Made by a program: the position numbers and the translations under genes. Under the pieces are notes generated by a model. The model was not told the origin of the DNA. It did not search any database and saw only the letters and a program-made list of their open reading frames with translations. Below, in pieces: positions 320 through 18,485 of a DNA stretch of 19,497 nt. Source of the stretch: a virus (lineage: Duplodnaviria; Heunggongvirae; Uroviricota; Caudoviricetes). The stretch lies in the IMG/VR virus record IMGVR_UViG_2600254985_000001, one strand, 5' to 3'. How positions within the stretch are numbered: the first letter of the stretch is position 1; the number at the start of each line of letters is the position of its first letter.

Positions 320-601
320 ATGAAACGTTTTTACGTAGAGGAAGACGACAATGGCAAAGAGATTAAGCGAAAACTTACAACTTTTGCTAATGATGATTTA
401 ACACAGCTTTCAGATGATGAGCTAGAAACATTATATTATGAATCATCTGCTCAATTTTTAGCTAAAGCAATGCACTTTATGAAGATTGAGAACGAACTAT
501 TTTCAAGAAAGAATGTAATTGTAAGTGATGAAATTCTAATAAATGTCGGCAATAATATTATTGAAGCTATCAATCAGGTAAGCAAAGGAGAAATCACTTG
601 A
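320..601 (+). CDS. hypothetical early-region protein (93 aa)
   Basis: ORF in the supplied track with an ATG at 320 preceded by AGAGGT about 9 nt upstream. Acidic, helical-looking sequence with no recognisable motif. Confidence 0.55.
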   Translation: MKRFYVEEDDNGKEIKRKLTTFANDDLTQLSDDELETLYYESSAQFLAKAMHFMKIENELFSRKNVIVSDEILINVGNNIIEAINQVSKGEIT

Positions 602-747
602 AGAACAACGAATTAGTGAAAAAAATCAACGAAGAGTTGAAGCTGAAAAACAAGCCTAAGTTGACAGAATCGCAAGAGAACACGATGAGGAAACTTAACG
701 ATCTAATAATAGAGGAAGTCAACATGTTAGTGAAAAAGATGAAGTGA
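598..747 (+). CDS. small lysine-rich hypothetical protein (49 aa, TTG start), absent from the ORF track
   Basis: TTG at 598..600 overlaps the TGA stop (599..601) of the upstream ORF and sits 7 nt after AAAGGAG (584..590). The frame stays open to a TGA at 745..747 and translates to MKNNELVKKINEELKLKNKPKLTESQENTMRKLNDLIIEEVNMLVKKMK. Confidence 0.3.
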   Translation: MKNNELVKKINEELKLKNKPKLTESQENTMRKLNDLIIEEVNMLVKKMK

Positions 748-752
748 TACCG

Positions 753-792
753 AACAAAGAAAGCCCCACAATTAAGTGAGGGCCTTTTTCGT
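753..792. terminator. bidirectional rho-independent terminator between convergent early genes and the endolysin
   Basis: Imperfect hairpin GCCCCAC (763..769) / loop AATTAA / GTGAGGGC (776..783), flanked by an A-rich run upstream (AACAAAGAAA) and CTTTTTC downstream, so a U-tract follows the stem on either transcript. It lies 3 nt beyond the endolysin stop (794..796). Confidence 0.5.
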
Positions 793-793
793 A

Positions 794-1555
794 TTATTTT
801 TTAGCAATGATTGGTTTGTCGATTCCGTTAGCTTGCATGAAACGAATATCAATAGGCGAACCTTTCCAATCGAAGTTTTTAAGGTCTTTGCCAGTTGTTT
901 CTTTATAAGTTTTACGAACAATTGCCAATTGGTCTGGGTGTGATAGAGCGATAACTTTTTCGCCATTAAAGTAGTAAGTTGTTTTATCGCCATTTGTATA
1001 TGTAAATTTCATTAAATCGTCGTCCTCTAATTCTGTATTTGTTTGTGTATTGTTTACTGCGACTGTGCCACTAGTTTGTCCTGTAAGGCGCTTGTTTAGT
1101 TCTGTGATAAAGTATGAGCGACAACTCTCTAACGTGCCTCCGTGTACTTCTACTGAACGTCTAGGGCATGAAGTTGCTGAAAGTTCTTGATGTAGTTTAA
1201 CAGTATCACGATTAGGAGTTAACCCCCATTGTTTCATGTACTTAGCCACGTCATCTAGTACCGCTTGCTCATTTCTCAAGAACTGGTTTAAATCGCCCTC
1301 TGATTGGCATACTTCCCAGCTTGCATAGTTAGCATTACCGTACGAGTTGGCACAATGCCATGCCATATTAGAGAAATCAGAAGCTTGTAATCTTCCGTCA
1401 GAAGCAATGTAGACATGAGCAAAGCCATTTTCAGGGTTATGATTAGGTAACCAGTTGTTGTAGAAGCCAGCGTTAGCACCATTCGAACCAGCGTCATTGT
1501 GAATTACAACCCCAGTAGGGTTATAACCACGTACACCAGCATTAGTTATATTCAT
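794..1555 (-). CDS. endolysin, putative N-acetylmuramoyl-L-alanine amidase (amidase_2/PGRP-like N-terminus)
   Basis: 253-aa ORF immediately downstream of the holin, with an ATGA start/stop overlap. The N-terminal half has His/Cys-containing segments typical of zinc amidases (VVIHNDAGS, AHVYI, MAWHCANSY). It is the last gene of the late operon. Confidence 0.75.
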   Translation of the reverse strand: MNITNAGVRGYNPTGVVIHNDAGSNGANAGFYNNWLPNHNPENGFAHVYIASDGRLQASDFSNMAWHCANSYGNANYASWEVCQSEGDLNQFLRNEQAVLDDVAKYMKQWGLTPNRDTVKLHQELSATSCPRRSVEVHGGTLESCRSYFITELNKRLTGQTSGTVAVNNTQTNTELEDDDLMKFTYTNGDKTTYYFNGEKVIALSHPDQLAIVRKTYKETTGKDLKNFDWKGSPIDIRFMQANGIDKPIIAKK

Positions 1556-1905
1556 TCTTTTTTATCCTCCGTTTGTTCTTCTTCTACTTCTGGAACACTT
1601 ACACCGTTCTTTTTCATAAGTTTAACCAAACCGTCGAACATAGGACTGATTTTTGCGACCAAATAAATAAATTGCCCTACAAAGTACAATAAACCTACGT
1701 CAATCACAGTTTTGGCAATATCAGAAGTTGAGGGAGTTTGTGTAAAGAAGAAGACCGCATATAAAACCCACAGGGATAAAATAACCGTTAAGTCAATCAC
1801 AAGTCTACGTTTGAAAGGTGGGTTCATTGCTTCTCTATCTTTTACCCATGTAGCGAAAAGAATCGCTAAAATTAAGATAGTTATTAAAATCATTCTAGTT
1901 ACCAT
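1552..1905 (-). CDS. holin
   Basis: 117 aa with three predicted transmembrane segments (ILITILILAILFATWV, LVIDLTVILSLWVLYAVFFF, VIDVGLLYFVGQFIYLVA) and a highly charged C-terminus (EVEEEQTEDKKE). Sits directly upstream of and overlapping the endolysin. Confidence 0.75.
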   Translation of the reverse strand: MVTRMILITILILAILFATWVKDREAMNPPFKRRLVIDLTVILSLWVLYAVFFFTQTPSTSDIAKTVIDVGLLYFVGQFIYLVAKISPMFDGLVKLMKKNGVSVPEVEEEQTEDKKE

Positions 1906-1926
1906 TTTGTTTCGCTTTCTATTTTG

Positions 1927-2886
1927 TTATTTAATGAAGTAACTTCCGTTACCACGTGTTGCAATAGGTGTTTTACCAATATCTGGTCCCCACCAAGTAA
2001 TACTACCGTTTGTGTCTATGTCAATATGGAAAGAAGTCTCATGTCCAGCAAAATGACCAACAATACTTTGAACAACAGCTGGACGAAATTCTTTATCTAC
2101 CCATGGTCCAGACATTTTAATGCCAGCTTTTGTAGTTGATACACTACCAAAGAGTCTAACAATTACTAAATCATCGTTCTTTTTAGTGAATTGCAACTGC
2201 ATACCATTTCCAGTTTGAATTGTCAACATTTGAGTTGGAACATCGATTGTACCTCTAAGTGATATATCATTTGCATTGATTGAACCTTTAAGCGATAAAT
2301 TATTTGCGTTGATTGAACCTTTAAGTGATAAATTATTTGCATTGATTGAATCTTTAAGTGATAAATCGTTTGCGTTGATTGAACCTTTAAGCGATAAATT
2401 ATTTGCATTGATTGAATCTTTAAGTGATAAATCGTTTGCAGAAATACTATCTAAAGTACTAGCCTGAAGAATTGGCTTAATGCTTGTTACACCAGTTCCT
2501 GAAGTCGTAACAACATCAAAACAAACTTTCAAAACGCCAGAACCGTTGTTTATATCAACACCGTTACTATTATTTGATGTTTCTGCTGATAAACTTACAG
2601 GGTTTGCTGTTTGCGTTAAGTCAATATTTGCATGGATATAATTAACTGCATTACCTTTTAAGGCAACAGTTTCATTCAATAGTTCAAAATACCTCCCGCC
2701 TGCAACGATTGATGTGTTAACATATTGCACGTTAAGGGCTGTATTTAATGGACTTTTCCAATCTTTGCGCCTAATTGTTCTATAGCCCATTCCAGTCAAC
2801 ATCATGTATAGTTTTCCGTCATTATTAGAACCGACTGGAAACTCTGTACCATTTGGACTGAAAAACGTGAAGTTTTTAATTGTCAT
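1927..2886 (-). CDS. rbp: receptor-binding protein (RBP, 936/p2-type) with a repeat-expanded neck
   Basis: 319-aa ORF in the RBP position (last structural gene before the holin). Its N-terminus ([11 protein letters not shown]...) and C-terminal region are consistent with my recollection of p2-type RBP shoulder and head domains. AAAGG ribosome-binding site 7 nt upstream of the ATG at 2884..2886. Confidence 0.8.
2239..2451 (-). repeat. in-frame 33-bp tandem repeats (about 6 units) encoding 11-aa units [11 protein letters not shown] / [11 protein letters not shown] within the RBP
   Basis: Directly visible: near-identical 33-bp units repeated head-to-tail. The translated RBP reads ...[68 protein letters not shown]... 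(residues about 146..216). Confidence 0.9.
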
Positions 2887-3184
2887 TTTTAACCTTTCTT
2901 GAAATTATTTCCGCTTTATCTAAAACTGGGTTATCAGTAATTGATAGCTCTAACAATCTAAATTTTCTACCGCCATAAGGATAACCACCAATTGATACAA
3001 ATTGTCCGACTTCATACAAGAGCGTGGTCTCGATTCTAAGCGTGTTTTTACTATTATAGTACACTTTACCTTGCAATAGTTCTAAGTGGTCTTTACGAAG
3101 CTCTCTATGCCCTTTAAAGCTATCTATTCTATATTTGTCGCCATAAGTAGCTACATACTCATATAACATTCGGTTTGTCTCCAC
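2876..3184 (-). CDS. hypothetical structural-module protein between Tal and RBP (102 aa)
   Basis: ORF in the conserved position between Tal and RBP. Overlaps the Tal 3' end and the RBP 5' end, a compact arrangement typical of a phage late operon. No recognisable motif. Confidence 0.5.
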
Positions 3185-4286
3185 TTCCTACAAAAATAAG
3201 TCTATCATTGAACTCTGTTTTAACTCTATCTGCTATATATCCTGAATATAGCTTGCCCTCGTACCAAATATCTACTAAGTCATTAACATACAAAGGAAAA
3301 AGTTCATTTTGATTAAAGAATAACCTTGTGACGATTGTAGAGGGAGAAATTTCAACCTTAATAGTAGACAACTCAGGAGGGTTTCCGTGGTCATCTCTAT
3401 CATAAAACAATGTTTTGGTTGTCCTTACATCTGGCAAGTCTGTTCCGTCTCCATGATAAGTGCTATAATCAATGACATCTCCGTTATTTTTTGCTGTGTA
3501 CATTTTAGGAGGGTCTGTGTAGTCATCTGTTGCTTTATTTTTAACGAACACAACAGCAAAATTATAAGCTGAACGTTCTACTATTGTTTCCGTGTCCATT
3601 GTCACACTTTGCTTAATATCTACCCTTGTCGTGATTCTTTTTCTATTCCAGTTTCTTGAAGCAAAGTTAATGAATAACAAGTTTCTAGGGTCTGTTTCAG
3701 ATGGAGCGTGTTGAATGGTTGTAGTTGGTTGAAATTGAACCTTGGAAAATATCCTTTTTGCTACATCATGAGCTGATGAAGTTTCCGCTTTACGATTAAT
3801 CGTAGCCTTTCCAGCAAAGATACTTGAATCAAAGAAATAACCATAACTCATTAAATTATTTTTATTAGGGTCAATTAAATAATTAATTATACCAGAGTTT
3901 GTCTTTTTGGCTATTGCGTTTGGAACGTCAAGACTTTCAATCATTGCCCAAAAGTAGTTTTTTAACGTAGCTTTATTACTTTCGTCTACATCGGTCACAA
4001 GGTAAACCATATCTAAATTCAGTTTTTTCCTCTTACCTAGAGCTTCTTCAATTGGAACAACTTCAGGAAAAAGTACTTGAACAATATCGCCAACTTCTAC
4101 CGAAACGGTCAATGTAGCTGATGAAGTGTAAAGATAGCCTGTTTCCCACAGTTCGTAATCAATAACTTGACATCTTGCCTTTGGTATTGGAAGGCCTCTT
4201 TTTTCTTTTTTACCATTAGGCATTCTGAAATCAGATATATTGTAATAGTTAGGGTTAAAGTTATCATAAACGTTAGCTTCTAACAT
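3159..4286 (-). CDS. tal: tail-associated protein Tal (short form, no C-terminal lysin extension)
   Basis: 375-aa ORF directly downstream of Dit, with its start overlapping the Dit stop. The size matches my recollection of the short Tal of p2-like 936 phages. No peptidase or glycosidase motif noticed. Confidence 0.65.
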   Translation of the reverse strand: MLEANVYDNFNPNYYNISDFRMPNGKKEKRGLPIPKARCQVIDYELWETGYLYTSSATLTVSVEVGDIVQVLFPEVVPIEEALGKRKKLNLDMVYLVTDVDESNKATLKNYFWAMIESLDVPNAIAKKTNSGIINYLIDPNKNNLMSYGYFFDSSIFAGKATINRKAETSSAHDVAKRIFSKVQFQPTTTIQHAPSETDPRNLLFINFASRNWNRKRITTRVDIKQSVTMDTETIVERSAYNFAVVFVKNKATDDYTDPPKMYTAKNNGDVIDYSTYHGDGTDLPDVRTTKTLFYDRDDHGNPPELSTIKVEISPSTIVTRLFFNQNELFPLYVNDLVDIWYEGKLYSGYIADRVKTEFNDRLIFVGSGDKPNVI

Positions 4287-5182
4287 TAAATAAAGTCCGC
4301 CTTTCTCTTGATTTTAAGCTCTGCCTTACTTAAATTAACTAGCTCCATTTGACCTTTTTCAATTATACGAGTTCTGTATCGCTCAAAGTTCATTACAGGG
4401 AATAAGTTTAGTACAGTTGTACCCTTCCAGCCTTGATAAAATTCGTCATTTACATCTGTATTAATTAAAATATAATCTTGTACCTGTTCCGTCTTAAACA
4501 CAATTGCAGTATATTCGTTTCCAACATCGTCTAAAAATCTAACTCCAGCAGGTGTTTTAGGAAGTTTCGGATATAATACCCCCATAAAACTAAATATTTT
4601 TTCTTTTATTTCCCAACGGCTTAAACGGCCTATGTCACTTTCCCCATAATAAGTGTAAGAGGTTCCTTCGATATACTTATAGTCTCCTGGTGCGGTTCCT
4701 CCATAAATTTTAGACTTACCAGAAAGAACTTTACCATTTTCAATCATGTCAAAAGTTAAATTTTCGTAAGTATACCACTTTGTAACTACATCGAAAGTTA
4801 TCTTTTCGCTGAAAGTTCCGTTCTTACCGTAACCCTCTGTCTTTGTGACATCTGCTAAAGCTAAATCAGCATACACCTGAAAAATTTCTGTTTGATATTC
4901 AAGTGTAACGAATTTTTTGCTAAGAATATCGTTTACGAAGTCTTTCATTAATTGATAATTTTCTTCTAAACTTTCTCCAAACGTTTCTAGCTTAAACTCT
5001 ATTTGTGGTTGAGTAATTGAGCGTTTTCCCATTATTCCAATACCATTACTTTGCCAGATGTTATTAGTTGATTGTAACCCTAAATTAGAGGGCTGGTAAA
5101 ATCTAACTTTTCCATTTGTAACGTCCCAAACTTTGTCGTCTGTTCCGTCTAAGTTAGTATGTATTTTATACTGTCTTACCAT
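4286..5182 (-). CDS. dit: distal tail protein Dit
   Basis: 298-aa ORF immediately downstream of the tape measure gene (start overlaps the TMP stop). Canonical Dit position and size for 936-group phages, with no obvious inserted domain. Confidence 0.65.
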   Translation of the reverse strand: MVRQYKIHTNLDGTDDKVWDVTNGKVRFYQPSNLGLQSTNNIWQSNGIGIMGKRSITQPQIEFKLETFGESLEENYQLMKDFVNDILSKKFVTLEYQTEIFQVYADLALADVTKTEGYGKNGTFSEKITFDVVTKWYTYENLTFDMIENGKVLSGKSKIYGGTAPGDYKYIEGTSYTYYGESDIGRLSRWEIKEKIFSFMGVLYPKLPKTPAGVRFLDDVGNEYTAIVFKTEQVQDYILINTDVNDEFYQGWKGTTVLNLFPVMNFERYRTRIIEKGQMELVNLSKAELKIKRKADFI

Positions 5183-8172
5183 TAAGCCCTCCCTAGTTCA
5201 AATTCTCGTCTGATTGCACGCGCTAAGTTAGAAACATCTTGACCAGCACCGCCTTGCACGTTAAATGTGTTATATGTTCTATTGTCGCTTGATACACTGT
5301 TAGTGCTTAAACCGTAACCGCTAGAAGATAAATTGACATCTGTTAAGCCTACTACCATAGAACCTTTGAATAGTCCGCCAACTTTACTTGCAACCCAATC
5401 AATTGAACCTTTGATATTTTTAATTGTATCTGTTACACCTCCAAGAACGCTGTCTATTGTATCTTTGACTCCTCCAAATATTCCGCTAAAGAAGTCGCCA
5501 ATGCCCTTAAATACTCCTGTTATTGCATCCCAAGCATTTGAAGCAAATTTACCAAAAGCCTCGAATACTCCGCTAACTATATCTTTAGCACCGTCAAACG
5601 CTCCCTTAAAGAAATCAGCTACTCCGTTAAATACACCTGAAATTGCATCCCAAGCTTTTGAAGCAAAGCCACCAAGAGCGCTAAACACTCCGCTAACGAC
5701 ACTGCGAACAGAATTGAATATGCCACTAAAGAAGCCTGAAACTGCATTCCATATTGATGAAACTACTCCCCAAGCGCTAGAAGCAAAACTTCCGATTGCA
5801 CTAAATACTGTTGAAACTACTGATTTTACAGCGTTAAATATACCGCCAAAGAAGCCTGAAACTGCATTCCATACGCCAACCAGTATATCCCAAGCTGAAC
5901 CAGCAAAGCTACCTATGGCGCTAAATACTGTTGAAACTATTGAACTAACTGCGTTAAATATTACACCAAAGAAACCTGATATGCCGTTCCACGCTCCGAT
6001 AACTAATTGGTAAGCACCGCGAATAATAGCCAATATAAGTTGGAATGCTAAATTAATTACTGATCCAACTAACCCAAATATAGATTGAAAGAAACTAATT
6101 AAAGGTTGGAAAGTTGTAACAAACCAGTTATAAGCACCTGTCACTAAAGAAGCAATGGTTGTAAATACAGTTGTAACAACATTTACTATTCCGTCCCATA
6201 GCCCTGTGAAGAACCCTGTAACTCCTGCCCATGCTGTTTGAATACCAGTAACAACAGTTGTCCATAAAGTAGTAAAGAATGTTGTTATTCCGTTCCAAAT
6301 ATTTTGAACACCTTGTACAATTCCACTGAACCAATCGACTAAGCCTTGCCAAATGCCTTTAGCTCCGTCAACTGCTCCGTTCCATATATCAGCAAACCAT
6401 TGACCAATACCGCTAAAGAATGAAACTATTCCGTCCCATGCACTCTTTAAGAAGTCTACGAAACTACCCCAAACCTTTTTACCTGTTTCGGTTTGAGTGA
6501 AGAAGTAAACTAAACCAGCAACAATGGCTGCGATTGCTATGCCAAGAGCCACGAATGGATTCATAGCCATTACAGCATTGAAAGCTCCTTGTATAATTGT
6601 ACCAGCTTCAACAACCTTATTATATATCTCGACAGCCTTAATGATTCCATCAATAACTTTCAAAGCAACGAATACACTAGCCAAAGCAGCTAAAGCTACT
6701 TTTAAAGTATCTATTGCGCTTTTACTTTCACTAATTTTTTGCAGAAAATCAGCTATTTTTTTCGTGACTTCTGAAAATTTACCAGCAAATACAGCTATGC
6801 TTTTTGCTACGTTATCTATACTTGTTGCGTTTTTTGTTGTTTCTGTATTTATTCCAATAAATGAATTTATGACATTCCCTATAATAGAAACTATGGAACC
6901 AAATGCACTTTTTATGCTATCCCAAGCCTCTAAAAATGCTAAAGTGGCTGCATTTTCTTGCAGTTTTTGAAACAAGTCTTGGAAATACTTAACTACATTT
7001 GTTACAGCTTTACCAGCACTTTCGCCCCAGTCAGACATCTGGTCTATTAAGCCACTAATGATAGGTGTTAAAGCGTTCAAAGTAGGCACTAAAGCAATTG
7101 ACATTGTTTCGTTGAAGCTGTCCCACGCGTCCCCAATAGTTTTGATTCCACCGCCCGAACCTTTAGCCATTTTTTCCATAGCCTTGTTGAGCATATCCAT
7201 CGAAACAGCGCCTTTTGAAACAGCGTCATTAAAAGAACCGTATTGCTGTAATGAGGGGTTCATTTTCATAACAGTGTCTTTTAAAGAAGAACCAAGAGCT
7301 GTGTTGTTATCGGTTAATTGTCCAATATTTTCAGCCGTAACTTTACCAGCTGCCGACATTTGACCGTAAGACTGAACTACACCTTTAAGGTTTTCGCCAG
7401 TACCACCAAATGCTTGGTTAGCTTTTACTAATGCTTCTGTTTTACTGACCGCTTTTTTAGCGCTATCGCCTAAACCAATGAACGTTGTTGAAAGTTTTAA
7501 AGTATCTTCGGTATTTGCATTTGTATCTTTAGCAAGATTCTGCATAGATTTGCTTACATAGTCAAAGTCTTTTCCATTGCCTTTGAACTTCATTGTATTT
7601 TGCAATGAAATCATGGCTTTTTGAGTATCCATTGCGTTAGATACCCAGTCTTTTAAGCCGTTACCGACAGCACTAACAGCACTTGCACCGATTTGTCTGA
7701 ATGCACCAACAGCAATCTCTCTAAGACCGCTAAAGCGTGACTTCATGCCCTCAATTCCGCTATTAACGCCTTTAGTATCCATTTTAGCGTCAATGTTCCA
7801 AGAGCCTGAACTAATAGCACCCTCGACTTGCTTAATTTCGCCCTCTAGCCTATTAGCTTGTGTTTCTACTGTACCTAAATCTCTAGTAAGTTGTAGCCAT
7901 TTCTTTTGACCTGCTGACGTCCCTTTGTCAACCGTAGAAAGTTCTTCTTTTAATTTTGTTGCTTTGTCACGTGATAAGCCCAACTGCGTTTGTAAGTTCT
8001 TCTGCAATTGCGCCATTTTCCCGGTATTTGTGGGGTCAAGTTTTAGAGCTTCACGTAAGTTTTTAGCTTCTCCTCTAAGCCCTGACATTGCGGTATTAAC
8101 GCCTTTAAGTGAGTTCTCGAATTTCGTTGTATTACCGTATATCTCGACCTCAAATGTTGCATTACTTGCCAT
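5182..8172 (-). CDS. tmp: tail tape measure protein (TMP)
   Basis: 996-aa ORF. N-terminal coiled-coil-like region, central hydrophobic segments, and a C-terminal series of about 40-aa Gly/Phe/Trp-rich tandem repeats (GIFNAV.SVVSTVFSAIGSFA.SAW...). Its position between the chaperone genes and Dit is diagnostic. Confidence 0.9.
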   Translation of the reverse strand: MASNATFEVEIYGNTTKFENSLKGVNTAMSGLRGEAKNLREALKLDPTNTGKMAQLQKNLQTQLGLSRDKATKLKEELSTVDKGTSAGQKKWLQLTRDLGTVETQANRLEGEIKQVEGAISSGSWNIDAKMDTKGVNSGIEGMKSRFSGLREIAVGAFRQIGASAVSAVGNGLKDWVSNAMDTQKAMISLQNTMKFKGNGKDFDYVSKSMQNLAKDTNANTEDTLKLSTTFIGLGDSAKKAVSKTEALVKANQAFGGTGENLKGVVQSYGQMSAAGKVTAENIGQLTDNNTALGSSLKDTVMKMNPSLQQYGSFNDAVSKGAVSMDMLNKAMEKMAKGSGGGIKTIGDAWDSFNETMSIALVPTLNALTPIISGLIDQMSDWGESAGKAVTNVVKYFQDLFQKLQENAATLAFLEAWDSIKSAFGSIVSIIGNVINSFIGINTETTKNATSIDNVAKSIAVFAGKFSEVTKKIADFLQKISESKSAIDTLKVALAALASVFVALKVIDGIIKAVEIYNKVVEAGTIIQGAFNAVMAMNPFVALGIAIAAIVAGLVYFFTQTETGKKVWGSFVDFLKSAWDGIVSFFSGIGQWFADIWNGAVDGAKGIWQGLVDWFSGIVQGVQNIWNGITTFFTTLWTTVVTGIQTAWAGVTGFFTGLWDGIVNVVTTVFTTIASLVTGAYNWFVTTFQPLISFFQSIFGLVGSVINLAFQLILAIIRGAYQLVIGAWNGISGFFGVIFNAVSSIVSTVFSAIGSFAGSAWDILVGVWNAVSGFFGGIFNAVKSVVSTVFSAIGSFASSAWGVVSSIWNAVSGFFSGIFNSVRSVVSGVFSALGGFASKAWDAISGVFNGVADFFKGAFDGAKDIVSGVFEAFGKFASNAWDAITGVFKGIGDFFSGIFGGVKDTIDSVLGGVTDTIKNIKGSIDWVASKVGGLFKGSMVVGLTDVNLSSSGYGLSTNSVSSDNRTYNTFNVQGGAGQDVSNLARAIRREFELGRA

Positions 8173-8684
8173 TACATACCCTTTCTTTTACGCCTTTTCT
8201 CTTTTTCTTTTTCCTCTTTCTTTTTCTCTGCAATAAGTTCGATTATTTTATAAACAAGTTCTAGTTCCATTTCCATGAACTGTGTTATATCAATTTCATT
8301 ATTGCCCAAAACAGTCAAAAGTTCTAAAGTTTTATTTTCCCTTACAGTATCTTTCTTTTTCTTAATCAATGAACTAGAAGAAAAGAAGACTGTATCGTCT
8401 TCCGTTTCCTCTTTTTCTTTAATAAAAACAGTTTTACAGAAGATATTGATTAACTCGTTAGTTGTAGGAAGCTCTGTTTTATCATCTAAGGCGTTTTGCA
8501 TTCCTCCGTTACAATCTACCCAAAGTATCAATAACTTGTCTGTAAAGCTCTCCATTTGCTCTGTAAAGTCATCAGGAATATATCCAGCGACAAAAGAATT
8601 TTGTAGGTCTGCAAAGTCTTTTAAATCTGTAATAAAGTCTGAACCAGTTAGTTCTAAGTATCTAATTGCATGTTTTAAAATCAT
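8172..8684 (-). CDS. tail assembly chaperone-like protein (170 aa, acidic with a basic C-terminal tail)
   Basis: ORF immediately upstream of the TMP, with its stop overlapping the TMP start. GAAAGGA ribosome-binding site upstream of its ATG. Position corresponds to the gpG/gpT chaperone slot. Confidence 0.5.
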   Translation of the reverse strand: MILKHAIRYLELTGSDFITDLKDFADLQNSFVAGYIPDDFTEQMESFTDKLLILWVDCNGGMQNALDDKTELPTTNELINIFCKTVFIKEKEETEDDTVFFSSSSLIKKKKDTVRENKTLELLTVLGNNEIDITQFMEMELELVYKIIELIAEKKKEEKEKEKRRKRKGM

Positions 8685-8703
8685 TTACAGTCCTTTCAGC
8701 TCA

Positions 8704-8979
8704 TTAAATTTCTTTCTGCCATAATTCGACAAGTTCTTTAAGCCCTTTACCGTCAGTATCGAACTCGAAGCTAGAACGGAAGTCAGAGAAGTCACTTTTA
8801 GCTTTTACAATGTTATCTTGAAAAAGAGCCAAGTATAGACCATATTGAACGAACTCCATTAGGTCAGTAATTTCTCCGTCTTCTTTTTTAAGTTCTGTAT
8901 CCATTGCCTTTTGTTGTTGGAAAAGGTCTTTACCTGTAATCATTTTAAATTTACGTGCTGTACTCAATTGTTTTGCCAT
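8704..8979 (-). CDS. tail assembly chaperone-like or small tail protein (91 aa)
   Basis: ORF between the major tail protein gene and the downstream chaperone ORF. Assigned on synteny only. Confidence 0.45.
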   Translation of the reverse strand: MAKQLSTARKFKMITGKDLFQQQKAMDTELKKEDGEITDLMEFVQYGLYLALFQDNIVKAKSDFSDFRSSFEFDTDGKGLKELVELWQKEI

Positions 8980-9016
8980 TTTATTTTATATTCCTTTACT
9001 TAATCTATTTTTAGTC

Positions 9017-9922
9017 TTATGAATGGTCAGTTACTGAAACTCCTGCGGTAACATCTTTATAACCCTCAGCGGAGAACTTTACGTTATAGGCACCTGGAGC
9101 AAGTTGTCCGTTTGTTGCTACTTTTCCATTTGCGTCATTAATCACTGATGTTACTTTTACAGTTCCACCATTAGAATCTTTCAAAGTGGCAGGCACTACG
9201 ATTCTTCCGTCATTATGACCCTTTGTAGCAGTAGTCACATTAGGAATAACAGGAGCTACGAGTGTAATTCCACCAGCTAGAACTGTATCAGGTTGCATAA
9301 TGAATAAACCACTTTCCATTTTCTTGACGAAATCTTTTGCTTGTTCTCCCCAAATTTCGTACTCAATAGCAGGGACTTTTTTACCGCCATTCAAATAAAT
9401 ATCTGACTCAGTCGCTTGTACTGCCAAAGTCCATTGGATAGGGTCTACACCGTCAACTGAATCTGTTTCTGATTCTTTTGTTGCTTCTGCTGTTGGTCTC
9501 AAATTTGGATAAACGACTACGCGATAACCGTCAACAAATTCCCCTGTAACTTTATCACGCTTACGCCCTTTAATAAGGTATTGAACACATTTCGTTTTCC
9601 AATTACCAGTAGGAGACCAACCCAAGCCATTTTCTGTTCTTTGTTGACCTAAAATGTCTTCTTTAAGCGATTGGTCTGTTTGAATGAATACCATTTCGCC
9701 TTGAAGTAAGGTAGCACCTTTTTTCACTCCATGGTCTGGCACGTCATCAGCTGGATAGCTGTTAGTCTCCGCTTGGTCTTCCATTGCGCCAACTGATACT
9801 AAACCAGTTACAATTTTATGGTTAGTAAACTCTGGTTTTCCGTTACTTCCCTTGGCCATATCAGCTACGATTAGAGCTTCATTACCAAAGAAAATCTCAC
9901 GTGAGTTATAATCTAATTTCAT
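9017..9922 (-). CDS. mtp: major tail protein (MTP) with C-terminal Ig-like domain
   Basis: 301-aa ORF upstream of the chaperone/TMP genes. The C-terminal approximately 90 residues (…VATNGQLAPGAYNVKFSAEGYKDVTAGVSVTDHS) resemble a bacterial Ig-like decoration domain. AAAGGA ribosome-binding site upstream. Confidence 0.75.
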   Translation of the reverse strand: MKLDYNSREIFFGNEALIVADMAKGSNGKPEFTNHKIVTGLVSVGAMEDQAETNSYPADDVPDHGVKKGATLLQGEMVFIQTDQSLKEDILGQQRTENGLGWSPTGNWKTKCVQYLIKGRKRDKVTGEFVDGYRVVVYPNLRPTAEATKESETDSVDGVDPIQWTLAVQATESDIYLNGGKKVPAIEYEIWGEQAKDFVKKMESGLFIMQPDTVLAGGITLVAPVIPNVTTATKGHNDGRIVVPATLKDSNGGTVKVTSVINDANGKVATNGQLAPGAYNVKFSAEGYKDVTAGVSVTDHS

Positions 9923-10029
9923 TTTTTATTTTCCTTTTTATTTTTTTATGCAGTACGTTTCCAATAATATATTGTCGTTGAACCAATTACTGCTGAACCG
10001 ATATTTTCCCATGCAATCCTAAATATATA

Positions 10030-12399
10030 TTAATCAATATCAATATTCCACATGCAAACAGGATATATTAAATCTTGTAACTGTGACATAATTTGAGCCA
10101 TTGAGTATTTGTTAGGGTGTATCGATCCATAAGTAACGCCATCTGAATTTAAAGCTGACCATGTTTTTATAGACATATCATTATGTGCGTAAGTTCTCGC
10201 TGTAAAATCAGCAAACGCACACTCGTATTTACGACATAATTCTTGTATTATAGGTCTAACATTTTGAAACCACTCTACATAGGTTCTCCCAGTATTATAA
10301 ACTGTTCCAACTGTTGGCAAAGTGATGATAATAGCCAAATCTTTTACGGTTTTATTATAAGCTGGTCTACCATTAACACTTGTATTTCCTCTTATTCTTT
10401 TCAATCCTTCTTCCATATTTGTTTTAAATAAGTTTAATCTTTGTTCTAGTGTTAACCCAGCGAACTTCGTATGGTTTTTATCAGCGTCATTCATTCCCCA
10501 TCCAATTATTAAAAGGTCTGGGTTATGTTCCATCGATGTTTGTAAAAAACCATTAGGGTATTTTTGTAAATAGTAAGGCAAAGCATAAGTTGGGTTTCCT
10601 ACCCATTCATTCGTATTTCTACCACCAAAACCATTGTTTAGTATTGATAATTTTTTTAAATCATAATTCCCTGCCTTCATTATTTTTTTAAGTGCATAAT
10701 CTTTCATGCCAAAAAAAGTATCTTGAACCGATGATAGTGGAGCGTAACCAGCAGTTATACTATCTCCGTCTAATGCTATTGATATATTATTTACACCGTC
10801 ATAAATTTTCTCATACCAATGCTCTAAATATTCATGTCCCCAAATAGGTGTAACTGGATATTTGTAATAATCAAACGCAGTAGTAGTTGTTGTAACAGTG
10901 TCATTACTTACTGACGGGGTATAATTTACCATTTTTTGAAAACTATCTAAATTACTCGGTACGTTGTTAGTGGATGAAGTGTAATTTAAAACTTGCATGT
11001 CTGCTAATATCATGTCAATATCAGATTGTGTAAGAGGTTTTAATCTAACATACCCTTGAATAGCATATATTCCATTTGCGTTTATATTTTTTTCGTTTGT
11101 AACAGTAACACTCTCACATTTCAAAGTATTGCTATTAAATTTAACTAATTCTAATCTTAAATATTTTGAGTTAGTATATTTTAAAATAGAACCCTTATTT
11201 AATGTCATTTTTTGAGTTGAAAAGTATGTCTTGTTAATATCTTTTGAAGCACTACCAACACTATATTTTCCATATGTTACAGTCAAGTCAATATCAACTA
11301 ACATTCTATCTTTGAGAAATTTTAATTCATCTTCAATAATGTCTATTTTGTCTGTAGTTGAAATATATGATGTAAAAATAAAATTTGATTTTGTCGTTGC
11401 AACATCTTCTCCCATTTTTCCAAAACCAGTTTTGGCAGTTTGAAAAGCAATTTTGCCAATATGCTTTATACTCATTCCATTTTTTACTTCGCCATAGCGT
11501 AAAAAAGCACCATTTTTATCATATAAAAAATATTTATAAAGTGTATAATTAGTTGGATTTTTAATATTTAATTCAACAGTACCGCTAATATCAAACTTTA
11601 CAGTTCTATTCATAGACTCATTAATAACTGTTTCGCCATTATTATCATTATATTTACCAACTTCCCAAGCAACATTTAAAGTTGTTGGTGTTAAACTGTT
11701 CGCTTGTGCTTCGGTAGCCTTTGCCATTGCATTTTTGGCTTCACTTTCAGCTTGTTTTGCTGTTTCTTGAGCAGTTGTTACATTTTGATTTGTGATTAAT
11801 AAATCTGATTGTTCAGCTTTTGTTGAAATTGCAATCCCTTGCCTGCTGACATCAGCTTGTAAGTTGTTCAAGTCTGTTTGATTGGCTTTAAGCTCAATAT
11901 TGCTCTTGTTTGATTCAGTTTGAGCATGTAAGTCATTCAACTCACTACGCATTACTTGTGGCATATTTTCCAATAATAATTTTGTAAAATCATCAATCTT
12001 ATTATTTACTTCTTGAGCTAAATCTGTAACCGTAGAATTATCTGATATAAACGTAAGGTTCTTGCTGACGATAACCTGCTCTTTATCTTCATTGAGAAGT
12101 ATTAAGTTCGCTTCAATAACTCCAGTTTCTGTCATTTCGGTAGGAATTACTAAAATAAACTCTCCCTTAGTTAAGTTTTCAGGAGGAATCATAACAAAAC
12201 CTGAATTACTGCTATTAGTATATTGATATGTAAGTTTTAATGAATGGCCAGTCAAATCAATTTCGCCTCCATTATCAAGTATTTTAATTGACAATGTTCT
12301 AGCGTTGACGTCGCCTTGCATTATTTGAATTGGTTGTGGGAAGCCTTTATTGACCGTATCCCATACAATCGCTCTATTTTTAAAATTATCTAAACTCAT
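10030..12399 (-). CDS. large accessory virion protein (789 aa): N-terminal domain, coiled-coil stalk, central beta-rich region, C-terminal SGNH/GDSL hydrolase domain; candidate neck passage structure (collar-whisker) protein
   Basis: Lies between the head-tail joining genes and mtp. Residues about 140..240 are heptad-like and Ala/Gln/Glu-rich. The C-terminal region has SGNH blocks: ALDGDSITAGY (Ser547 codon at 10759..10761), NNGFGG, GWGMNDA, and DGVTYGSIHP. Confidence 0.7.
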   Translation of the reverse strand: MSLDNFKNRAIVWDTVNKGFPQPIQIMQGDVNARTLSIKILDNGGEIDLTGHSLKLTYQYTNSSNSGFVMIPPENLTKGEFILVIPTEMTETGVIEANLILLNEDKEQVIVSKNLTFISDNSTVTDLAQEVNNKIDDFTKLLLENMPQVMRSELNDLHAQTESNKSNIELKANQTDLNNLQADVSRQGIAISTKAEQSDLLITNQNVTTAQETAKQAESEAKNAMAKATEAQANSLTPTTLNVAWEVGKYNDNNGETVINESMNRTVKFDISGTVELNIKNPTNYTLYKYFLYDKNGAFLRYGEVKNGMSIKHIGKIAFQTAKTGFGKMGEDVATTKSNFIFTSYISTTDKIDIIEDELKFLKDRMLVDIDLTVTYGKYSVGSASKDINKTYFSTQKMTLNKGSILKYTNSKYLRLELVKFNSNTLKCESVTVTNEKNINANGIYAIQGYVRLKPLTQSDIDMILADMQVLNYTSSTNNVPSNLDSFQKMVNYTPSVSNDTVTTTTTAFDYYKYPVTPIWGHEYLEHWYEKIYDGVNNISIALDGDSITAGYAPLSSVQDTFFGMKDYALKKIMKAGNYDLKKLSILNNGFGGRNTNEWVGNPTYALPYYLQKYPNGFLQTSMEHNPDLLIIGWGMNDADKNHTKFAGLTLEQRLNLFKTNMEEGLKRIRGNTSVNGRPAYNKTVKDLAIIITLPTVGTVYNTGRTYVEWFQNVRPIIQELCRKYECAFADFTARTYAHNDMSIKTWSALNSDGVTYGSIHPNKYSMAQIMSQLQDLIYPVCMWNIDID

Positions 12400-12455
12400 T
12401 AAAAAATACCATTATTGTTAATTTCAATCAAATGTAATTAAACCACTTTCTACTT

Positions 12456-12842
12456 TTATAATTTCATTGAATTAGCATAAATAGCGCCTTTTTTCAATGT
12501 TGTTTTAACGTCTTGCATACCTTTTTTATTTCTTAAAAAGTACATACCATGATAACCGCTAGTATAATTAGCTCTAGTACCTGCGTCAATAACTATTTTA
12601 TCGCCTTTTTTAACTTGTTTTAAGTTACTTGATAATTGACCAGTATTTTGGTATCTAGCATAAGTATAGGTGTGACCATGACTTCTAATTAATCTAGTTC
12701 TTCGGCTTGCACTATTCGCTTTAGCTTTAAATTCTGCTTCAAACCAGTCGCCCATGCGTTCTGTTACTTTAGTTTGCATTTCTTTAGCTATGCTTGCTGT
12801 ATTAAGTAAATTCATTGCCATGCTTGACCACCTGCACCACAA
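12456..12842 (-). CDS. head-tail joining or tail completion protein (128 aa)
   Basis: Fourth small ORF after the capsid gene. Assigned by synteny with HK97-like and 936-type head-tail connector gene sets. Overlaps its upstream neighbour. Confidence 0.5.
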   Translation of the reverse strand: MWCRWSSMAMNLLNTASIAKEMQTKVTERMGDWFEAEFKAKANSASRRTRLIRSHGHTYTYARYQNTGQLSSNLKQVKKGDKIVIDAGTRANYTSGYHGMYFLRNKKGMQDVKTTLKKGAIYANSMKL

Positions 12843-13150
12843 GGCAAATAAACAGTACCAGTATAATTGTACAAATGGCTATTCTCTGACCAGTTCGTCA
12901 TATTCCAACCGTTTTGTAAAACATTTCCGACTAGTTCTACAAGTTCATCGTCAACATCTTTAACAGATAAAACAACTTGATAATAGTAACCCATGACAAA
13001 GCTCGTATTATCCATTTTAATGACCTTTGAGTCACTAAGTGATAAATATACCGTCTTGTCTTCTATCGTGTCCTTAACACCTAAAATAACGTCATTTAGA
13101 GGCATTGTAAGCAAATTGTTGTACCAATCTATATAAGAATCAAATTCCAT
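12812..13150 (-). CDS. head-tail joining protein (112 aa)
   Basis: Small ORF in the head-tail connector cluster, overlapping both neighbours. Assigned by synteny. Confidence 0.5.
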   Translation of the reverse strand: MEFDSYIDWYNNLLTMPLNDVILGVKDTIEDKTVYLSLSDSKVIKMDNTSFVMGYYYQVVLSVKDVDDELVELVGNVLQNGWNMTNWSENSHLYNYTGTVYLPCGAGGQAWQ

Positions 13151-13454
13151 TGCTTACTACCCCCTCTAAAATCATCTTGTTATTCTTAGGGTTTCTTTCC
13201 CATGTTGTACGCTTGAAAGTTTCGCCTTTTTCGTCCAAGAAATAGTTGAAAATCAAGTCTTCCATTTCTCCGATTCCGTTAAGCTCGTATCTTACGTTTT
13301 TACCTAGCCCAATCATAGAAAACTCATCAAGCCTTGTCTGACTAATTCTCTGTTTAACTGCTGGTAAAACGATAGGCTTTATAACATTAGCTTCTGCACC
13401 GTTCTTCTTCTTAACAGTCGTTTCTACCTGTAATGTAACTTGTGAGAATATCAT
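13140..13454 (-). CDS. head-tail adaptor or head closure protein (104 aa)
   Basis: Small ORF in the head-tail connector cluster, with its start overlapping the upstream stop. Assigned by synteny. Confidence 0.5.
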   Translation of the reverse strand: MIFSQVTLQVETTVKKKNGAEANVIKPIVLPAVKQRISQTRLDEFSMIGLGKNVRYELNGIGEMEDLIFNYFLDEKGETFKRTTWERNPKNNKMILEGVVSNGI

Positions 13455-13717
13455 TAAATACCTCCATAATACATTAACTCTTGCAAAGAAGCCAAACGTT
13501 TCATTTCAGCATTTCGCCATTGTTCTGCTGGTTCATCAACAATATTAAGCCGACAATAACAAGAAATAAAGTCTTTAACTAATACGCTTGTTTCGTCAGC
13601 TTTAATACCATTTTTTTCTAGCAATTTAATAGCTATTGAACGGAATAAGATAAGTTTACTATCATAAGCTGTTACTAAAATCGGAATACCACAATAGACC
13701 TTAATATAATCTATCAT
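13454..13717 (-). CDS. head-tail connector protein (87 aa)
   Basis: First small ORF downstream of the major capsid gene. Assigned by synteny. Confidence 0.5.
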   Translation of the reverse strand: MIDYIKVYCGIPILVTAYDSKLILFRSIAIKLLEKNGIKADETSVLVKDFISCYCRLNIVDEPAEQWRNAEMKRLASLQELMYYGGI

Positions 13718-13737
13718 TTACTTCCTCCATTTTATTC

Positions 13738-14940
13738 TTATGCTACTGTAATTACTGCACCAGCGTTATAAGTTTCAACATGACCGCTTGTTAGTGTTTC
13801 TACCAAAATCATGTTGCTGTTAGTTTTCCATTCAAAGGCATCAACTTTTGTAAGGTCTTGCATGTCAATGTGATACTTTTGGTCTACCAATACAGTAGGT
13901 TTGAGTGCTTTTGAACCTGTATAGACAATAATTTCATCTACTCCAACTTCAGAGGCAATTTCAGCGTCATCATTTTTAATACGAACGTGAGCATTTGCAG
14001 TTGCTTGACGTAACTCATCTAACAAGGCTTTACGGTCTTCTGCTTTAACAATCAAATAACGACGTCCAGCAGTAGGGCGAACAAAGTCAACCGCTTCTTC
14101 AATAGCGTCAGCAAATGGAGTTTTGCCAGCTGATTTGGCTTTTGTAGTAATCTTTTTGATTTTTTTGACGTCTGCTTCTTTTTCAATTGATTTAAAACCG
14201 TTTGTTCCGTCACCCTCAATAAGCGCAAGGTCAACAATTTTATTAACAATAGCTTGTGTAAGTTCCGCTACAATCAAGTTGTAAAGTTCAGAATATGACA
14301 TTTGAAGTCGTTTAACACGTTCAGCAAGTGATTGCAATTTATAAACCATTACAGGTTCAAGAGTATCAATAGTGAGAGCTGCAGCCTGTTCTACTTTTTG
14401 TTGTCCGTCTTTGTGGAGATTTGCTTCATTAGCTGAATCAAATGAGCGTGATACGAGCAAAGCGCCGACATTTGTAACACGGAATACTTTGAACACTGGG
14501 TTAGTATTTAACAAAACTGTGTTGATTGAATCAACCAATTTACGTGGAAGCTCAAAAGTTTTATCTGTGATAGTTACACCATTTTCAGCAAGTTTTGCGC
14601 TCCAAGCGTTTTTAATTTCTGATTTTCCAGAGTTCTTTTTCAATACATCAAAAAATTCTGTTACAGCGTTTTGTGATTCAATAAAGTTTGTCATTTTATC
14701 TTTTCCTTTTGGTTTTTCTTCCTGTGCGTTAAGTTCATTCTCAATTTTGATAATTTCAATTGAATTTTCTGAAAGTGTTTTTTCCAATTCTTGTACTTTT
14801 GGCAAGTCTTCAATTGCATTTTTTACTTCAAAGCCACTAATTTGAGATTTTAAAGATACGTTATTTTCTTTAAGTTCTGCCAAGCGGTTCTGTTTTTCGA
14901 TTAAATCAGGTTTATTCATATTTCTTTTTAATATCCTCAA
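13738..14940 (-). CDS. major capsid protein (HK97-like, with N-terminal scaffolding/delta domain)
   Basis: 400-aa ORF following the protease gene. The N-terminal approximately 100 residues are coiled-coil-like (…RLAELKENNVSLKSQISGFEVKNAIEDLPKVQELEKTLSEN…), as in delta-domain capsid proteins. Canonical portal-protease-capsid order. Confidence 0.8.
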   Translation of the reverse strand: MRILKRNMNKPDLIEKQNRLAELKENNVSLKSQISGFEVKNAIEDLPKVQELEKTLSENSIEIIKIENELNAQEEKPKGKDKMTNFIESQNAVTEFFDVLKKNSGKSEIKNAWSAKLAENGVTITDKTFELPRKLVDSINTVLLNTNPVFKVFRVTNVGALLVSRSFDSANEANLHKDGQQKVEQAAALTIDTLEPVMVYKLQSLAERVKRLQMSYSELYNLIVAELTQAIVNKIVDLALIEGDGTNGFKSIEKEADVKKIKKITTKAKSAGKTPFADAIEEAVDFVRPTAGRRYLIVKAEDRKALLDELRQATANAHVRIKNDDAEIASEVGVDEIIVYTGSKALKPTVLVDQKYHIDMQDLTKVDAFEWKTNSNMILVETLTSGHVETYNAGAVITVA

Positions 14941-15448
14941 TTTCTTTCAAAGCGTTACGGCTTTCAATAATTTTGTTACGTTCTTCTGTGAGTTCTTCGC
15001 CCAATGCATTTTGAATAAACTTTGCGTTAGGGTCAGCTGGTACTGAAACAAGAGAAATCTCTTTAAACTGTGCTTTATTTACAACTAGAGCATCATTTTC
15101 ATTAAACTCATAATCTGTAATGTAATAGGCAATTGATAGTGAATCAAACGCTCCATTTTCCACAGCTTTGTTAATGTTTGGTGCATTGTCGTAAAGCGTA
15201 AAGTCAGTCAGGTATTTATTAGAAGCTAAGTCATAATAAACTTTCGCGTCCCCAATTACTTCACTAGATCCAGCTCCGTGTTCATATAGCAATGGATATC
15301 GTTCTCTAGCAAACTCAATGCAGTTAGGGGTCAAGATAATACCGTTACGATTCTCTACGCCAACTTCTGAACCAATGCCTTGGAACGACTTAGAACCGTC
15401 CTCGTTTTCAGTTACTTTAATTTCAGCACTATTGGTTATTAGTTTCAT
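14912..15448 (-). CDS. prohead maturation protease (HK97 family) or scaffold-like protein
   Basis: 178-aa ORF between the portal and capsid genes. Overlaps both neighbours. Assignment is mainly by synteny. Confidence 0.55.
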   Translation of the reverse strand: MKLITNSAEIKVTENEDGSKSFQGIGSEVGVENRNGIILTPNCIEFARERYPLLYEHGAGSSEVIGDAKVYYDLASNKYLTDFTLYDNAPNINKAVENGAFDSLSIAYYITDYEFNENDALVVNKAQFKEISLVSVPADPNAKFIQNALGEELTEERNKIIESRNALKEIEDIKKKYE

Positions 15449-16565
15449 CTGTGCTTGTTACGTCCTTTCTATTGCCTTGTAAATCACTTAGGTTTTTAAC
15501 AGCAACTGCGTTAAGGTTTGTGACATAAATATCTCCGCCCTCGATTGGTTGCTCGCCCATTTTAACAAGAAGTTGATTCTGTGTAAAAATAGGAGCGTTG
15601 ATATTTTCGTGATACAAGTCAATTAATTCTTTCAAAGTTGCAAACTTGAATAGCTGGTTATCTACGATTATGCGTTCATAATATAAATTATCCTTAACTA
15701 CTCGTCTGCGGTTTGTTGAAATCAGTTTATAAGTCAGTTCCTTTTCAAGTTGAATCAGTAAAGGAATGATAGTAGAGTTATAAAAATAAATTTGTTGTTC
15801 TTGCGTAGCAGTACCAAGCAAAATATTTTCATTCATAAAGTAGCCTGTCAAAAGTTCCGATTTAATAAGGTCAATTTCATCTTTGTTTAAAACGGAATAA
15901 TCTTTTTTAAGTTCTACAATTTCCGTCTTGTTATCAACTGGTGTCAAACCATTGTAACTCGAACCCTCTTGCATGTTCTTTATTGTTGTTAAGGCTTTTT
16001 CTCGATACTCTTGCGTATTATCAATATCAAGAAAGGCATTAATTTTCAACAAGCCACGCAATTTACCTTGTTCCAGCTTAGTTTGAATACTAGCTAGAGC
16101 ATTATCTAAAATACTTGTATCCTCATTGATATAAAAAGGACTGATAAGCCTTACTAATTCTTCAGGTTTATATTCTTTTTTATCGTTAGCAAATAGTAGG
16201 TCTAATAGATCTCCTGTTTCACTATCAAATATAGGGTACAGGTCAACATAGCGCGTGCATAGCAACTTTTTAATTACTTTCTGCCAAAACTCCATGCTAT
16301 TGTGTTCGCCCTTAGAACTCCAGTTTAGAACCTCGTCTAAGTCAGAACCTGCCATACTAATCAAAGTATCAGAACCAACATCAGACTTTTTATATTTAAC
16401 ATGATTAAATTCTACTTTTGTTATTTCATTAGCGATTTTATTATGAATGTTAGTCACAAAGGCACTTGTATATTCTACCGCTTCGTTTTGCCACGCTGTA
16501 ACTCTTTGAGTATCATTGTTTAGCTTTCCACGTGAAAATGATACCACTTTTCCGAATAAGTTCAA
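15429..16565 (-). CDS. portal protein
   Basis: 378-aa ORF between the terminase/HNH genes and the protease gene. Assigned by synteny and size. Confidence 0.7.
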   Translation of the reverse strand: MNLFGKVVSFSRGKLNNDTQRVTAWQNEAVEYTSAFVTNIHNKIANEITKVEFNHVKYKKSDVGSDTLISMAGSDLDEVLNWSSKGEHNSMEFWQKVIKKLLCTRYVDLYPIFDSETGDLLDLLFANDKKEYKPEELVRLISPFYINEDTSILDNALASIQTKLEQGKLRGLLKINAFLDIDNTQEYREKALTTIKNMQEGSSYNGLTPVDNKTEIVELKKDYSVLNKDEIDLIKSELLTGYFMNENILLGTATQEQQIYFYNSTIIPLLIQLEKELTYKLISTNRRRVVKDNLYYERIIVDNQLFKFATLKELIDLYHENINAPIFTQNQLLVKMGEQPIEGGDIYVTNLNAVAVKNLSDLQGNRKDVTSTDETNNQ

Positions 16566-16577
16566 TTTTTCCCCTTT

Positions 16578-16862
16578 CTACCATAAACTCACACCTTTCC
16601 CACGTTTATACTCGCTTGTCTTCTTGTTATGGCAAGACTTACAAAGGAGTTGTAGGTTATCAGGGTTCAGCGCTATTTTCCAATCATCAAGATTTTCCCA
16701 AGTTAGTTCTATAATATGGTCTACTTCGTATTTTTTAGCACCGAATGCGCCACATCTTACGCAAGTCATCTTATCACGTTGTCTTACATAATCACGGACA
16801 GCCAACCATTCTTTTTTATTATACCAACCACTTTCTCGAACTGTGTCAACATTATACTTCAT
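16578..16862 (-). CDS. HNH homing-type endonuclease (terminase-associated)
   Basis: 94-aa ORF with paired Cys and an H-N-H core ([48 protein letters not shown]). Overlaps the terL 3' end by about 11 nt. Confidence 0.85.
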
Positions 16863-18474
16863 CTGACACCGCCATTTCTAAAGCCATTGTCAAAGCAACA
16901 GTAGGGTCAATTTTATCTTTTTCAAGTTTTTTAGTATACATATAGTCCCCATTTTGTCCGATTTTAACAGCAGTATTATTTAAAGCCCACTGCATGACTT
17001 TTTGGTTATGGATAAGTTTATTTTCCGCTAACTTAGATTTTAATAGCTTGATATAGTCACTCATTGAGAAACCTTGTCGAATTGCTCTTTGGTTGTCTCC
17101 ATCTTTGTCAAAGAAATAACGCTCAATCAGCCCTTTTAAAATTTCATAGCGAGCTGGGTCGTATCCGACTTTTCTAAGTCTGCACCCTGTTTTGGTTCTA
17201 AAGTCATTAATATGCGGTATTAAGTCGTTCACATTGATGTATTCCGTATCAAGTAAGATTAGTTCGCCTCTGTCAACGAATTCAGTCCATAACTCTTGTT
17301 GTTCTGTGTCCAGTTGCTCATATTGAGACCGTACAGAGAAAGTTAGCGTATGGCTGTAAGTTTTACCCTCTAACTCACAAACGAACGATACAGCGGTTAA
17401 ATCGCCAATTAAGGATAGGTCAATTCCGACATAAGTTCTATTTTTATTAAATACAGATAAATTAAAGTCTGTTAGTTTAGTGTCTTGCGGAGTGAAGTAG
17501 TAAGCTGTATCCTGCATAGGTAAGCCCATATTAAACGCTAAGAACTTATTCTGTAACGCTGGGTCTCCTTGCGCAAGCTCGTACTCCTCAATAACTCCTG
17601 ACCACTTAGGAACATTGCCAATAAGTGGTAAAGCCATAGTCCAATTCTTTTTATCTTTGACCTGCTCATGATTTTCTAGCATGTAAAGCAAGCCGAATGA
17701 CCTATCATTGTAAAATTCTTCTTCTGATTTGAATCGTTCAACAAGTTTATCATAAAGTCCGTCGCGTTTAAGTCCGCCAGAAGTGATGTAAATACTTTGC
17801 CAGTTATCTTGTTTTTGACGTGAACCTTTATTAACTGACTCTGTTATATCCTCGCCATAGGTATGGACTTCATCAAATATATTAAGGGAACTGTTACCAC
17901 CTTGCGCTCGTAAAGTATCATTTGTTTGCTTTTTAAAAGTGGTTTTGAAAGACGTAAATTCTAGCCCTTGTTTTGTACTCTTGAAAATCTTGTTTTCATT
18001 GTACACTCTTAATGTATCACTTGCTTCCGTTTGATTCCTAACTTGGTCAAATACGTGTCTAGCCTGTGTATTATCGTATGCAATAACTAGACTTTCTCCG
18101 CCATATTGTCCGCCTAAAATCATCCAGTTAAGCACGCGCGTAGCCATTAAACTAGACTTACCTGATCCACGGCCTAAATTAAGAAAAATCTCATTAATTA
18201 GGTTGACTTGAACACCTTTTTCATCAACCATATCATAGCCTAACATTAACTCATACCACCATTTTTGTGTTGGAAGTAGCTCAATTTTCATCAGGTTACC
18301 AGTAGTCAGGTAGAAGTTGTCTTCTATCCATTCAATAGCTTGCGTAACACGGTCATAGCGATAAATATATTTGTTATGAATACGTATTTGCTTCTGAATA
18401 GTCTTGCGAATGTACTTATTAATAATAATGCCGTTTTCTTTGTTGTATTCCAACATTTTATTTAAATAATACAT
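16852..18474 (-). CDS. terL: terminase large subunit
   Basis: 540-aa ORF with a Walker A-like motif (LGRGSGKSS, around residue 100) and acidic residues in the C-terminal nuclease region. Lies downstream of terS. Confidence 0.9.
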
Positions 18475-18485
18475 TCATTCCCTTT

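Follow-up and report, generated by a model that had tools for sequence, protein, structure and literature searches.

The hairpin at positions 753–792 of the window, the whole 19,497-nt stretch of viral DNA that was analysed, is probably an intrinsic (factor-independent) terminator common to both of the transcription units that converge here in the genome of a 936-type (Skunavirus) Lactococcus phage, a reading to which a probability of about 0.78 is assigned. The GenBank record of phage sk1 (AF011378) carries a regulatory feature at 15788..15822, described as 'terminator, putative bidirectional terminator', five bases past the lysin gene ORF20. Over the whole of this feature, the minus strand of the window is identical to sk1; the identity takes in the end of the lysin gene, the A-run, the two arms, the loop and the motif TTTCTTT. 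Because of this identity, the window hairpin is regarded as a rediscovery of a known and ordinary element.

Read as its reverse complement, the window corresponds to the first ~19.5 kb of the genome of a Skunavirus (936-group) Lactococcus phage, and it is ~98% identical to the Skunavirus genomes JG7, AF6, BM12 and RH13. Position 19496 aligns with the first position of several complete Skunavirus records, so that the window extends at its right end (19496–19497) to the conventional start of the genome, close to the cos site, and takes in the whole late operon. The hairpin and its immediate neighbours are the following:

598–747, plus strand: last ORF of the early unit, 49 aa, hypothetical (from the ORF list; equals hypothetical protein RH13_23 of phage RH13).
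753–762, unstranded: A-rich tract AACAAAGAAA; its minus strand, UUUCUUUGUU, would form the U-rich tail of the late-direction terminator (from the sequence).
763–769 and 776–783, unstranded: arms of the putative terminator hairpin, 7 bp (6 G-C, 1 A-U), with a bulge at A779 and a loop of 6 nt (770–775) (from folding, the hairpin scan, sk1 identity and covariation).
784–792, unstranded: C+TTTTT+CGT, the candidate early-direction U-tract; its minus strand, ACGAAAAAG, is the A-run upstream of the late-direction hairpin (from the sequence).
794–1555, minus strand: final gene of the late unit, encoding the endolysin, an N-acetylmuramoyl-L-alanine amidase of 253 aa (Pfam PF01510 Amidase_2, E 1.6e-13).

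According to the ORF list, minus-strand ORFs tile positions 794–19237, while plus-strand ORFs reach position 747. The endolysin ORF is labelled 'endolysin' in RH13 and 'lysin' (ORF20) in sk1 records, and the holin, receptor-binding protein and baseplate genes are located upstream of it on the same strand, as indicated by Pfam matches and the RH13 annotation. This agrees with the proposal that the late minus-strand transcript ends at the endolysin. On the opposite side, the plus-strand ORFs 320–601 and 598–747 match hypothetical early-region genes of RH13 that are encoded on the same strand as the RH13 SaV gene, and by these sequence matches they would constitute the distal end of the early block; ORF 598–747 has no Pfam match. 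Its stop codon (745–747) lies 15 nt before the stem and that of the endolysin gene (796–794) 8–9 nt before the stem from the other direction, which leaves a gap of 46 nt between the converging stop codons that is filled by the hairpin. In sk1, the late genes ORF1–20 are encoded on one strand and the early genes ORF21–50 on the opposite strand (PMC10986495), and both groups converge at ORF20/ORF21 (PMC10986495; PMC3445015). More generally, the 936 genome consists of three transcription units, and its late and replication units face each other (PMC3445015). The convergent ORFs, the 46-nt gap, the strand of the RH13 SaV gene and the gene layout of sk1 agree with the original prediction that the hairpin marks the boundary between an early plus-strand and a late minus-strand unit.

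Two further ORFs, at 772–993 (minus strand) and 776–943 (plus strand), occupy other frames within the lysin gene and were treated as spurious. A promoter-like match on the minus strand (822–793, TCGACA-18-AATAAT) lies within the 3' part of the lysin gene and is directed towards the terminator; it was taken as a chance occurrence because promoter-like sites are no commoner in the window than in shuffled sequences.

The plus strand of the element reads AACAAAGAAA-GCCCCAC-AATTAA-GTGAGGGC-C-TTTTT-CGT. A GC-rich hairpin is thus present where it had been proposed, and its coordinates were right. The A-run and T-run that were said to flank it were also found, one on each side, although neither is as clean as the description implied: the A-run is an interrupted A-rich tract with 8 A in 10 positions, broken by a C and a G, and the T-run consists of five T (CTTTTT, 784–789) that are separated from the stem by one C. 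Past the stem, the minus strand continues with TTTCTTTGTT, and the late-direction U-tract UUUCUUUGUU is interrupted. Each strand contains 6 T in the 9 nt past the stem, and both U-tracts are imperfect (C UUUUU CG on the plus strand, UUUCUUUGUU on the minus strand). In the late sense, one extra G.U pair is possible between positions 784 and 762. The element combines the features of an intrinsic terminator, namely a GC-rich stem-loop, a U-rich tract 3' of the stem and a site past the stop codon at the end of a unit, with those of a bidirectional terminator, i.e., an A-tract mirroring the T-tract and a site between convergent genes.

RNA folding of positions 753–792 on both strands, which had been suggested as a check, gave −13.2 kcal/mol on the plus strand (z −3.8) and −17.6 kcal/mol on the minus strand (z −4.6), and none of 200 shuffled sequences folded as well on either strand. 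A simple scan for a terminator consensus was dropped as evidence, with 9 sites in the window versus 9.8 in shuffles; it detects the 753–792 site on the minus strand only, since the bulge breaks the plus-strand stem. As the consensus scan is uninformative on its own, every 26-nt segment of the 19.5-kb window was folded instead, on both strands, and the tail was scored as the number of T in the next 9 nt. In this exhaustive hairpin-plus-tail scan, the 753–792 element is the strongest 26-nt hairpin of each strand (−13.0 kcal/mol on the minus strand, −10.9 kcal/mol on the plus strand). Twenty-two hairpin clusters reach −8 kcal/mol or lower, but at least 6 T in the next 9 nt are found at only three strand-sites, two of which are the two strands of this element. 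While two places pass on any strand, 753–792 is the sole place in the window with T-rich tails on both. A rough stem-plus-tail score in the style of d'Aubenton-Carafa, computed with modern energy parameters and uncalibrated, returned negative values throughout, which makes its absolute threshold unusable, and was used for ranking alone. On the minus strand, it places the 753–792 site clearly first (d −5 vs −44 for the runner-up); on the plus strand, the site only ties for first place with an intragenic site. No Rfam match at the gathering threshold was obtained for the whole window; this is expected, since Rfam has no families for generic terminators.

The sole other terminator-like site that passes the hairpin-plus-tail filter is found at 8384–8403 (both strands), inside the minus-strand ORF 8172–8684. 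It consists of a perfect palindrome of 6 bp, GAAGAC-TGTATC-GTCTTC, followed on the minus strand by a T-rich tail (TTTCTTCTA). The coding region that contains it is immediately upstream of the tape measure gene, and the palindrome may have arisen by chance or be an internal attenuator or a translational signal.

Relatives of the element were collected by scanning viral contigs with the endolysin protein, which yielded 80 loci, 77 of them with readable sequence past the lysin gene. The best hairpin starts 0–12 nt past the lysin stop codon in these 77 loci, with the exception of six in which it is found about 100 nt past an earlier in-frame stop. All 77 share the same arrangement: an A-run of 5–8 precedes the first arm of the stem, the loop reads TTAATT, TTAATC or TTTATA, and the second arm is followed by a T-run of 3–6 and then by more T. 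The A-run has a median length of 6 (range 5–8), and the window, with 5, represents the family minimum. Seventeen stem variants were observed, which fall into three classes: GGCCCTCAC/GTGGGGC, to which the window belongs, G(G/A)CCACC/GGTGG and GACAGC/GCTG.

The covariation of the paired positions was analysed in an ungapped alignment of 27 distinct sequences. Standard pairs occupy 92% of the cells, compared with 48–64% when the 3' partner is slid by 1–3 columns, and changes on both sides occur in 7 of the 10 pairs. None of 500 shuffles attained the observed covariation score, and RNAalifold independently gave the same helix (9 bp). Compensatory stem changes in an element that recurs in 77 of 77 loci, together with the identical sk1 feature that is itself called a putative bidirectional terminator, lend in silico support to the bidirectional reading put forward in the original prediction.

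The lysin genes next to these hairpins are themselves variable. In the six exceptional loci (L031, L035, L039, L061, L062 and L064; about 2275–2375 in most), the lysin frame meets a TAA codon, followed by ~97 nt that again encode the C-terminal motif of the lysin (KDLKNFDWKGSP...) and then by the terminator, which suggests a frameshifted or duplicated 3' end of the lysin gene. Across the 80 loci, the lysins range from 233 to 260 aa, with identities down to 75%, and the 253 aa of the window compare with 246 aa in sk1 and most close relatives. This variation fits the listing of the lysin as a divergent point of 936 genomes (PMC3445015).

Compensatory changes maintain pairing on both strands and hence cannot tell which of the two RNAs matters, but wobble pairs can. 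Among the seven inner pairs, G.U or U.G occurs in 28 cells when these are read in the late (lysin) sense; they would be A.C mismatches in the early sense, and the reverse applies to a single cell. Since its G.U pairs turn into A.C mismatches in the early sense, the late-sense hairpin is systematically the stronger one, with mean values of −13.1 vs −10.7 kcal/mol and a more stable late-sense fold in 44 of 48 distinct variants. The asymmetry argues for selection at the RNA level, at least in the late sense, and for more than a mere DNA palindrome. By the standards of the family, the window has a weak early-direction signal (bulged stem, C past the stem, U5). In this phage, the plus direction seems the weaker of the two. 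On the other hand, the early direction gains from the conserved unbroken A-run a clean U-run of 5–8, which is often better than the interrupted late tail. A late terminator would not need the A-run, and its conservation is therefore the best argument for a real two-way use.

These data bear on several other explanations. It is unlikely that the element stops the late (lysin-sense) transcript efficiently while early transcripts are mostly read through, or end by RNA decay or by collision with late transcription. Such a one-way terminator would account for the stronger late-sense hairpin in 44 of 48 variants, with late G.U pairs as early-sense mismatches, and for the C+U5 early tail, the bulged stem and the rough score of the window that is no better than that of an intragenic site. 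It is at odds with the unbroken A-run of 5–8 upstream of the stem in 77 of 77 relatives and the clean early-direction U-run encoded by it, as the late direction has no strict need of an A-tract and its conservation favours early use; moreover, the early-sense fold is still far beyond that of shuffles (z −3.8). Very unlikely is a function as a 3'-end stability or processing element that protects the mRNA of the late and/or early unit against 3'-to-5' exonucleases once it has been cleaved or terminated elsewhere, without releasing the polymerase. A stable 3' stem-loop is compatible with this role and selection on late-sense RNA pairing would also fit, but the U-rich and A-rich tracts that flank the stem in every relative are left unexplained and the hairpin-plus-tail scan detected no other terminator-like signal nearby that could supply the 3' end. 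The role is also compatible with termination, and terminator hairpins normally stabilise 3' ends too.

The surroundings of the hairpin raise the question of a function at the DNA level. Precisely where the T-tract ends, the identity of the window with sk1 breaks off. On the lysin side as well as on the early side, the three stem classes are accompanied by several different flanks, so that the surroundings are mosaic. These observations would be consistent with a DNA palindrome without any RNA role, serving as a protein-binding site or as a recombination junction between late and early modules. This explanation is nevertheless highly improbable: the two arms fall short of a perfect inverted repeat, the pairing of many variants depends on G.U, which is a mismatch in DNA and on the other strand, and the window stem is bulged. 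In addition, the stem tolerates sequence changes that preserve pairing, which is not typical of a protein recognition site, and A/T tracts flanking a GC stem between convergent genes represent textbook terminator anatomy. The end of sk1 identity past TTTCTTT (753–762 leftwards; sk1 locus L082 from 1323) and the occurrence of the stem classes on varied flanks do indicate that the terminator is located at a mosaic (recombination) junction of late and early modules. A combined view, in which the element, rather than being a symmetric two-way stop, is selected as an RNA structure chiefly in the late sense, the only one in which G.U pairs are tolerated, and also serves as a preferred crossover point for re-assorting 936-type late and early modules, is conceivable but doubtful. 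A chance hairpin without function, for which the lax consensus scan (9 terminator-like sites vs 9.8 in shuffled sequence) could be invoked, is effectively refuted by the comparative data, considering that the element is the strongest hairpin of the window, intergenic, equipped with T-rich tails on both sides and conserved with compensatory changes in 77 of 77 relatives.

The favoured interpretation thus remains that of an intrinsic terminator shared by both units. During intrinsic termination, a hairpin forms in the nascent RNA while the RNA:DNA hybrid holds a U-rich segment; this rU:dA hybrid is weak and becomes disrupted, so that the polymerase lets go. In the late direction, RNA polymerase on the minus strand would pass the endolysin stop codon and transcribe GGCCCUCAC-UUAAUU-GUGGGGCU. 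The GC-rich hairpin would then fold while the weak rU:dA hybrid of UUUCUUUGUU occupies the active site, leading to release of the transcript. In the early direction, polymerase on the plus strand would transcribe GCCCCAC-AAUUAA-GUGAGGGC followed by CUUUUUCG and be released likewise. As a result, both units would be insulated from each other: early transcription would not continue as antisense transcription of the lysis and structural (morphogenesis) genes, nor late transcription as antisense transcription of the early genes. That transcripts end at this site, and with which efficiency in each direction, is what we infer from its structure, position, statistical distinctness, compensatory conservation and identity with sk1. 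The literature that was searched yielded no 3'-end mapping (Term-seq, 3' RACE), in vitro transcription or reporter data for the element, and the GenBank feature itself is worded as 'putative'.

The short distances between the stop codons and the stem, 8–9 nt past the lysin stop and 15 nt past that of the early ORF, were counted against this interpretation. Coupling of transcription and translation is looser in Bacillus-type Firmicutes, and this would lessen ribosome occlusion in Lactococcus. At the E. coli terminator tR2, a stop codon placed 5 bp before the terminator lowers the efficiency from about 90% to under 10% through ribosome occlusion (PMC4824070).

The element would mark the ends of the late (structural, lysis) and early (replication) units in a major group of dairy phages. 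Its recognition is useful for reading RNA-seq and Ribo-seq data of infected Lactococcus, and the element could serve as a compact natural two-way terminator part in Lactococcus constructs. The comparative data, i.e., its presence in 77 of 77 loci, the compensatory stem changes and the G.U asymmetry in favour of the late sense, strengthen the 1997-era 'putative' annotation and leave the view of the element unchanged.

Compared with the annotated terminator of sk1, the element is found in the same place, between the lysin gene and the end of the early block. The two sequences differ on the early side, where they split abruptly right after TTTCTTT. In the window, 15 nt separate the stem from the end of the early ORF; in sk1, the distance to the closest early ORF that is annotated (ORF21) is ~420 nt, and this stretch of AF011378, 15823–16245, contains no annotated gene. 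The lysins differ too, with 253 aa in the window and 246 aa in sk1. A segment beside the terminator, TTGTAA(A/T)TGAAGATATCCTACTTTCTAT, is kept in many relatives and absent from the window. Unlike the sk1 record, the record of phage bIL170 (AF009630) contains no terminator feature at the equivalent place.

The other stem classes of the 936 group (GGCCACC-TTAATT-GGTGG and GACAGC-TTTATA-GCTG) occupy the same place past the lysin stop codon, with the same layout of A-run and T-run and often with the same TTAATT loop. They differ from the window in the stem itself, which belongs to the less common bulged GGCCCTCAC/GTGGGGC class and is present in exactly this form in 5 of the 77 loci, including sk1.

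With bacterial bidirectional Rho-independent terminators, the element shares the GC-rich stem-loop, the upstream A-tract, the downstream T-tract and the short gap between convergent stop codons. Nothing essential differs from these systems; what distinguishes the phage element is its short stem (7 bp with a bulge), its imperfect U-tracts and the stronger late sense. A terminator hairpin that is preceded by an A-tract can act on transcription from either side, and an unequal efficiency of the two directions has also been reported for known bidirectional terminators (PMC4824070).
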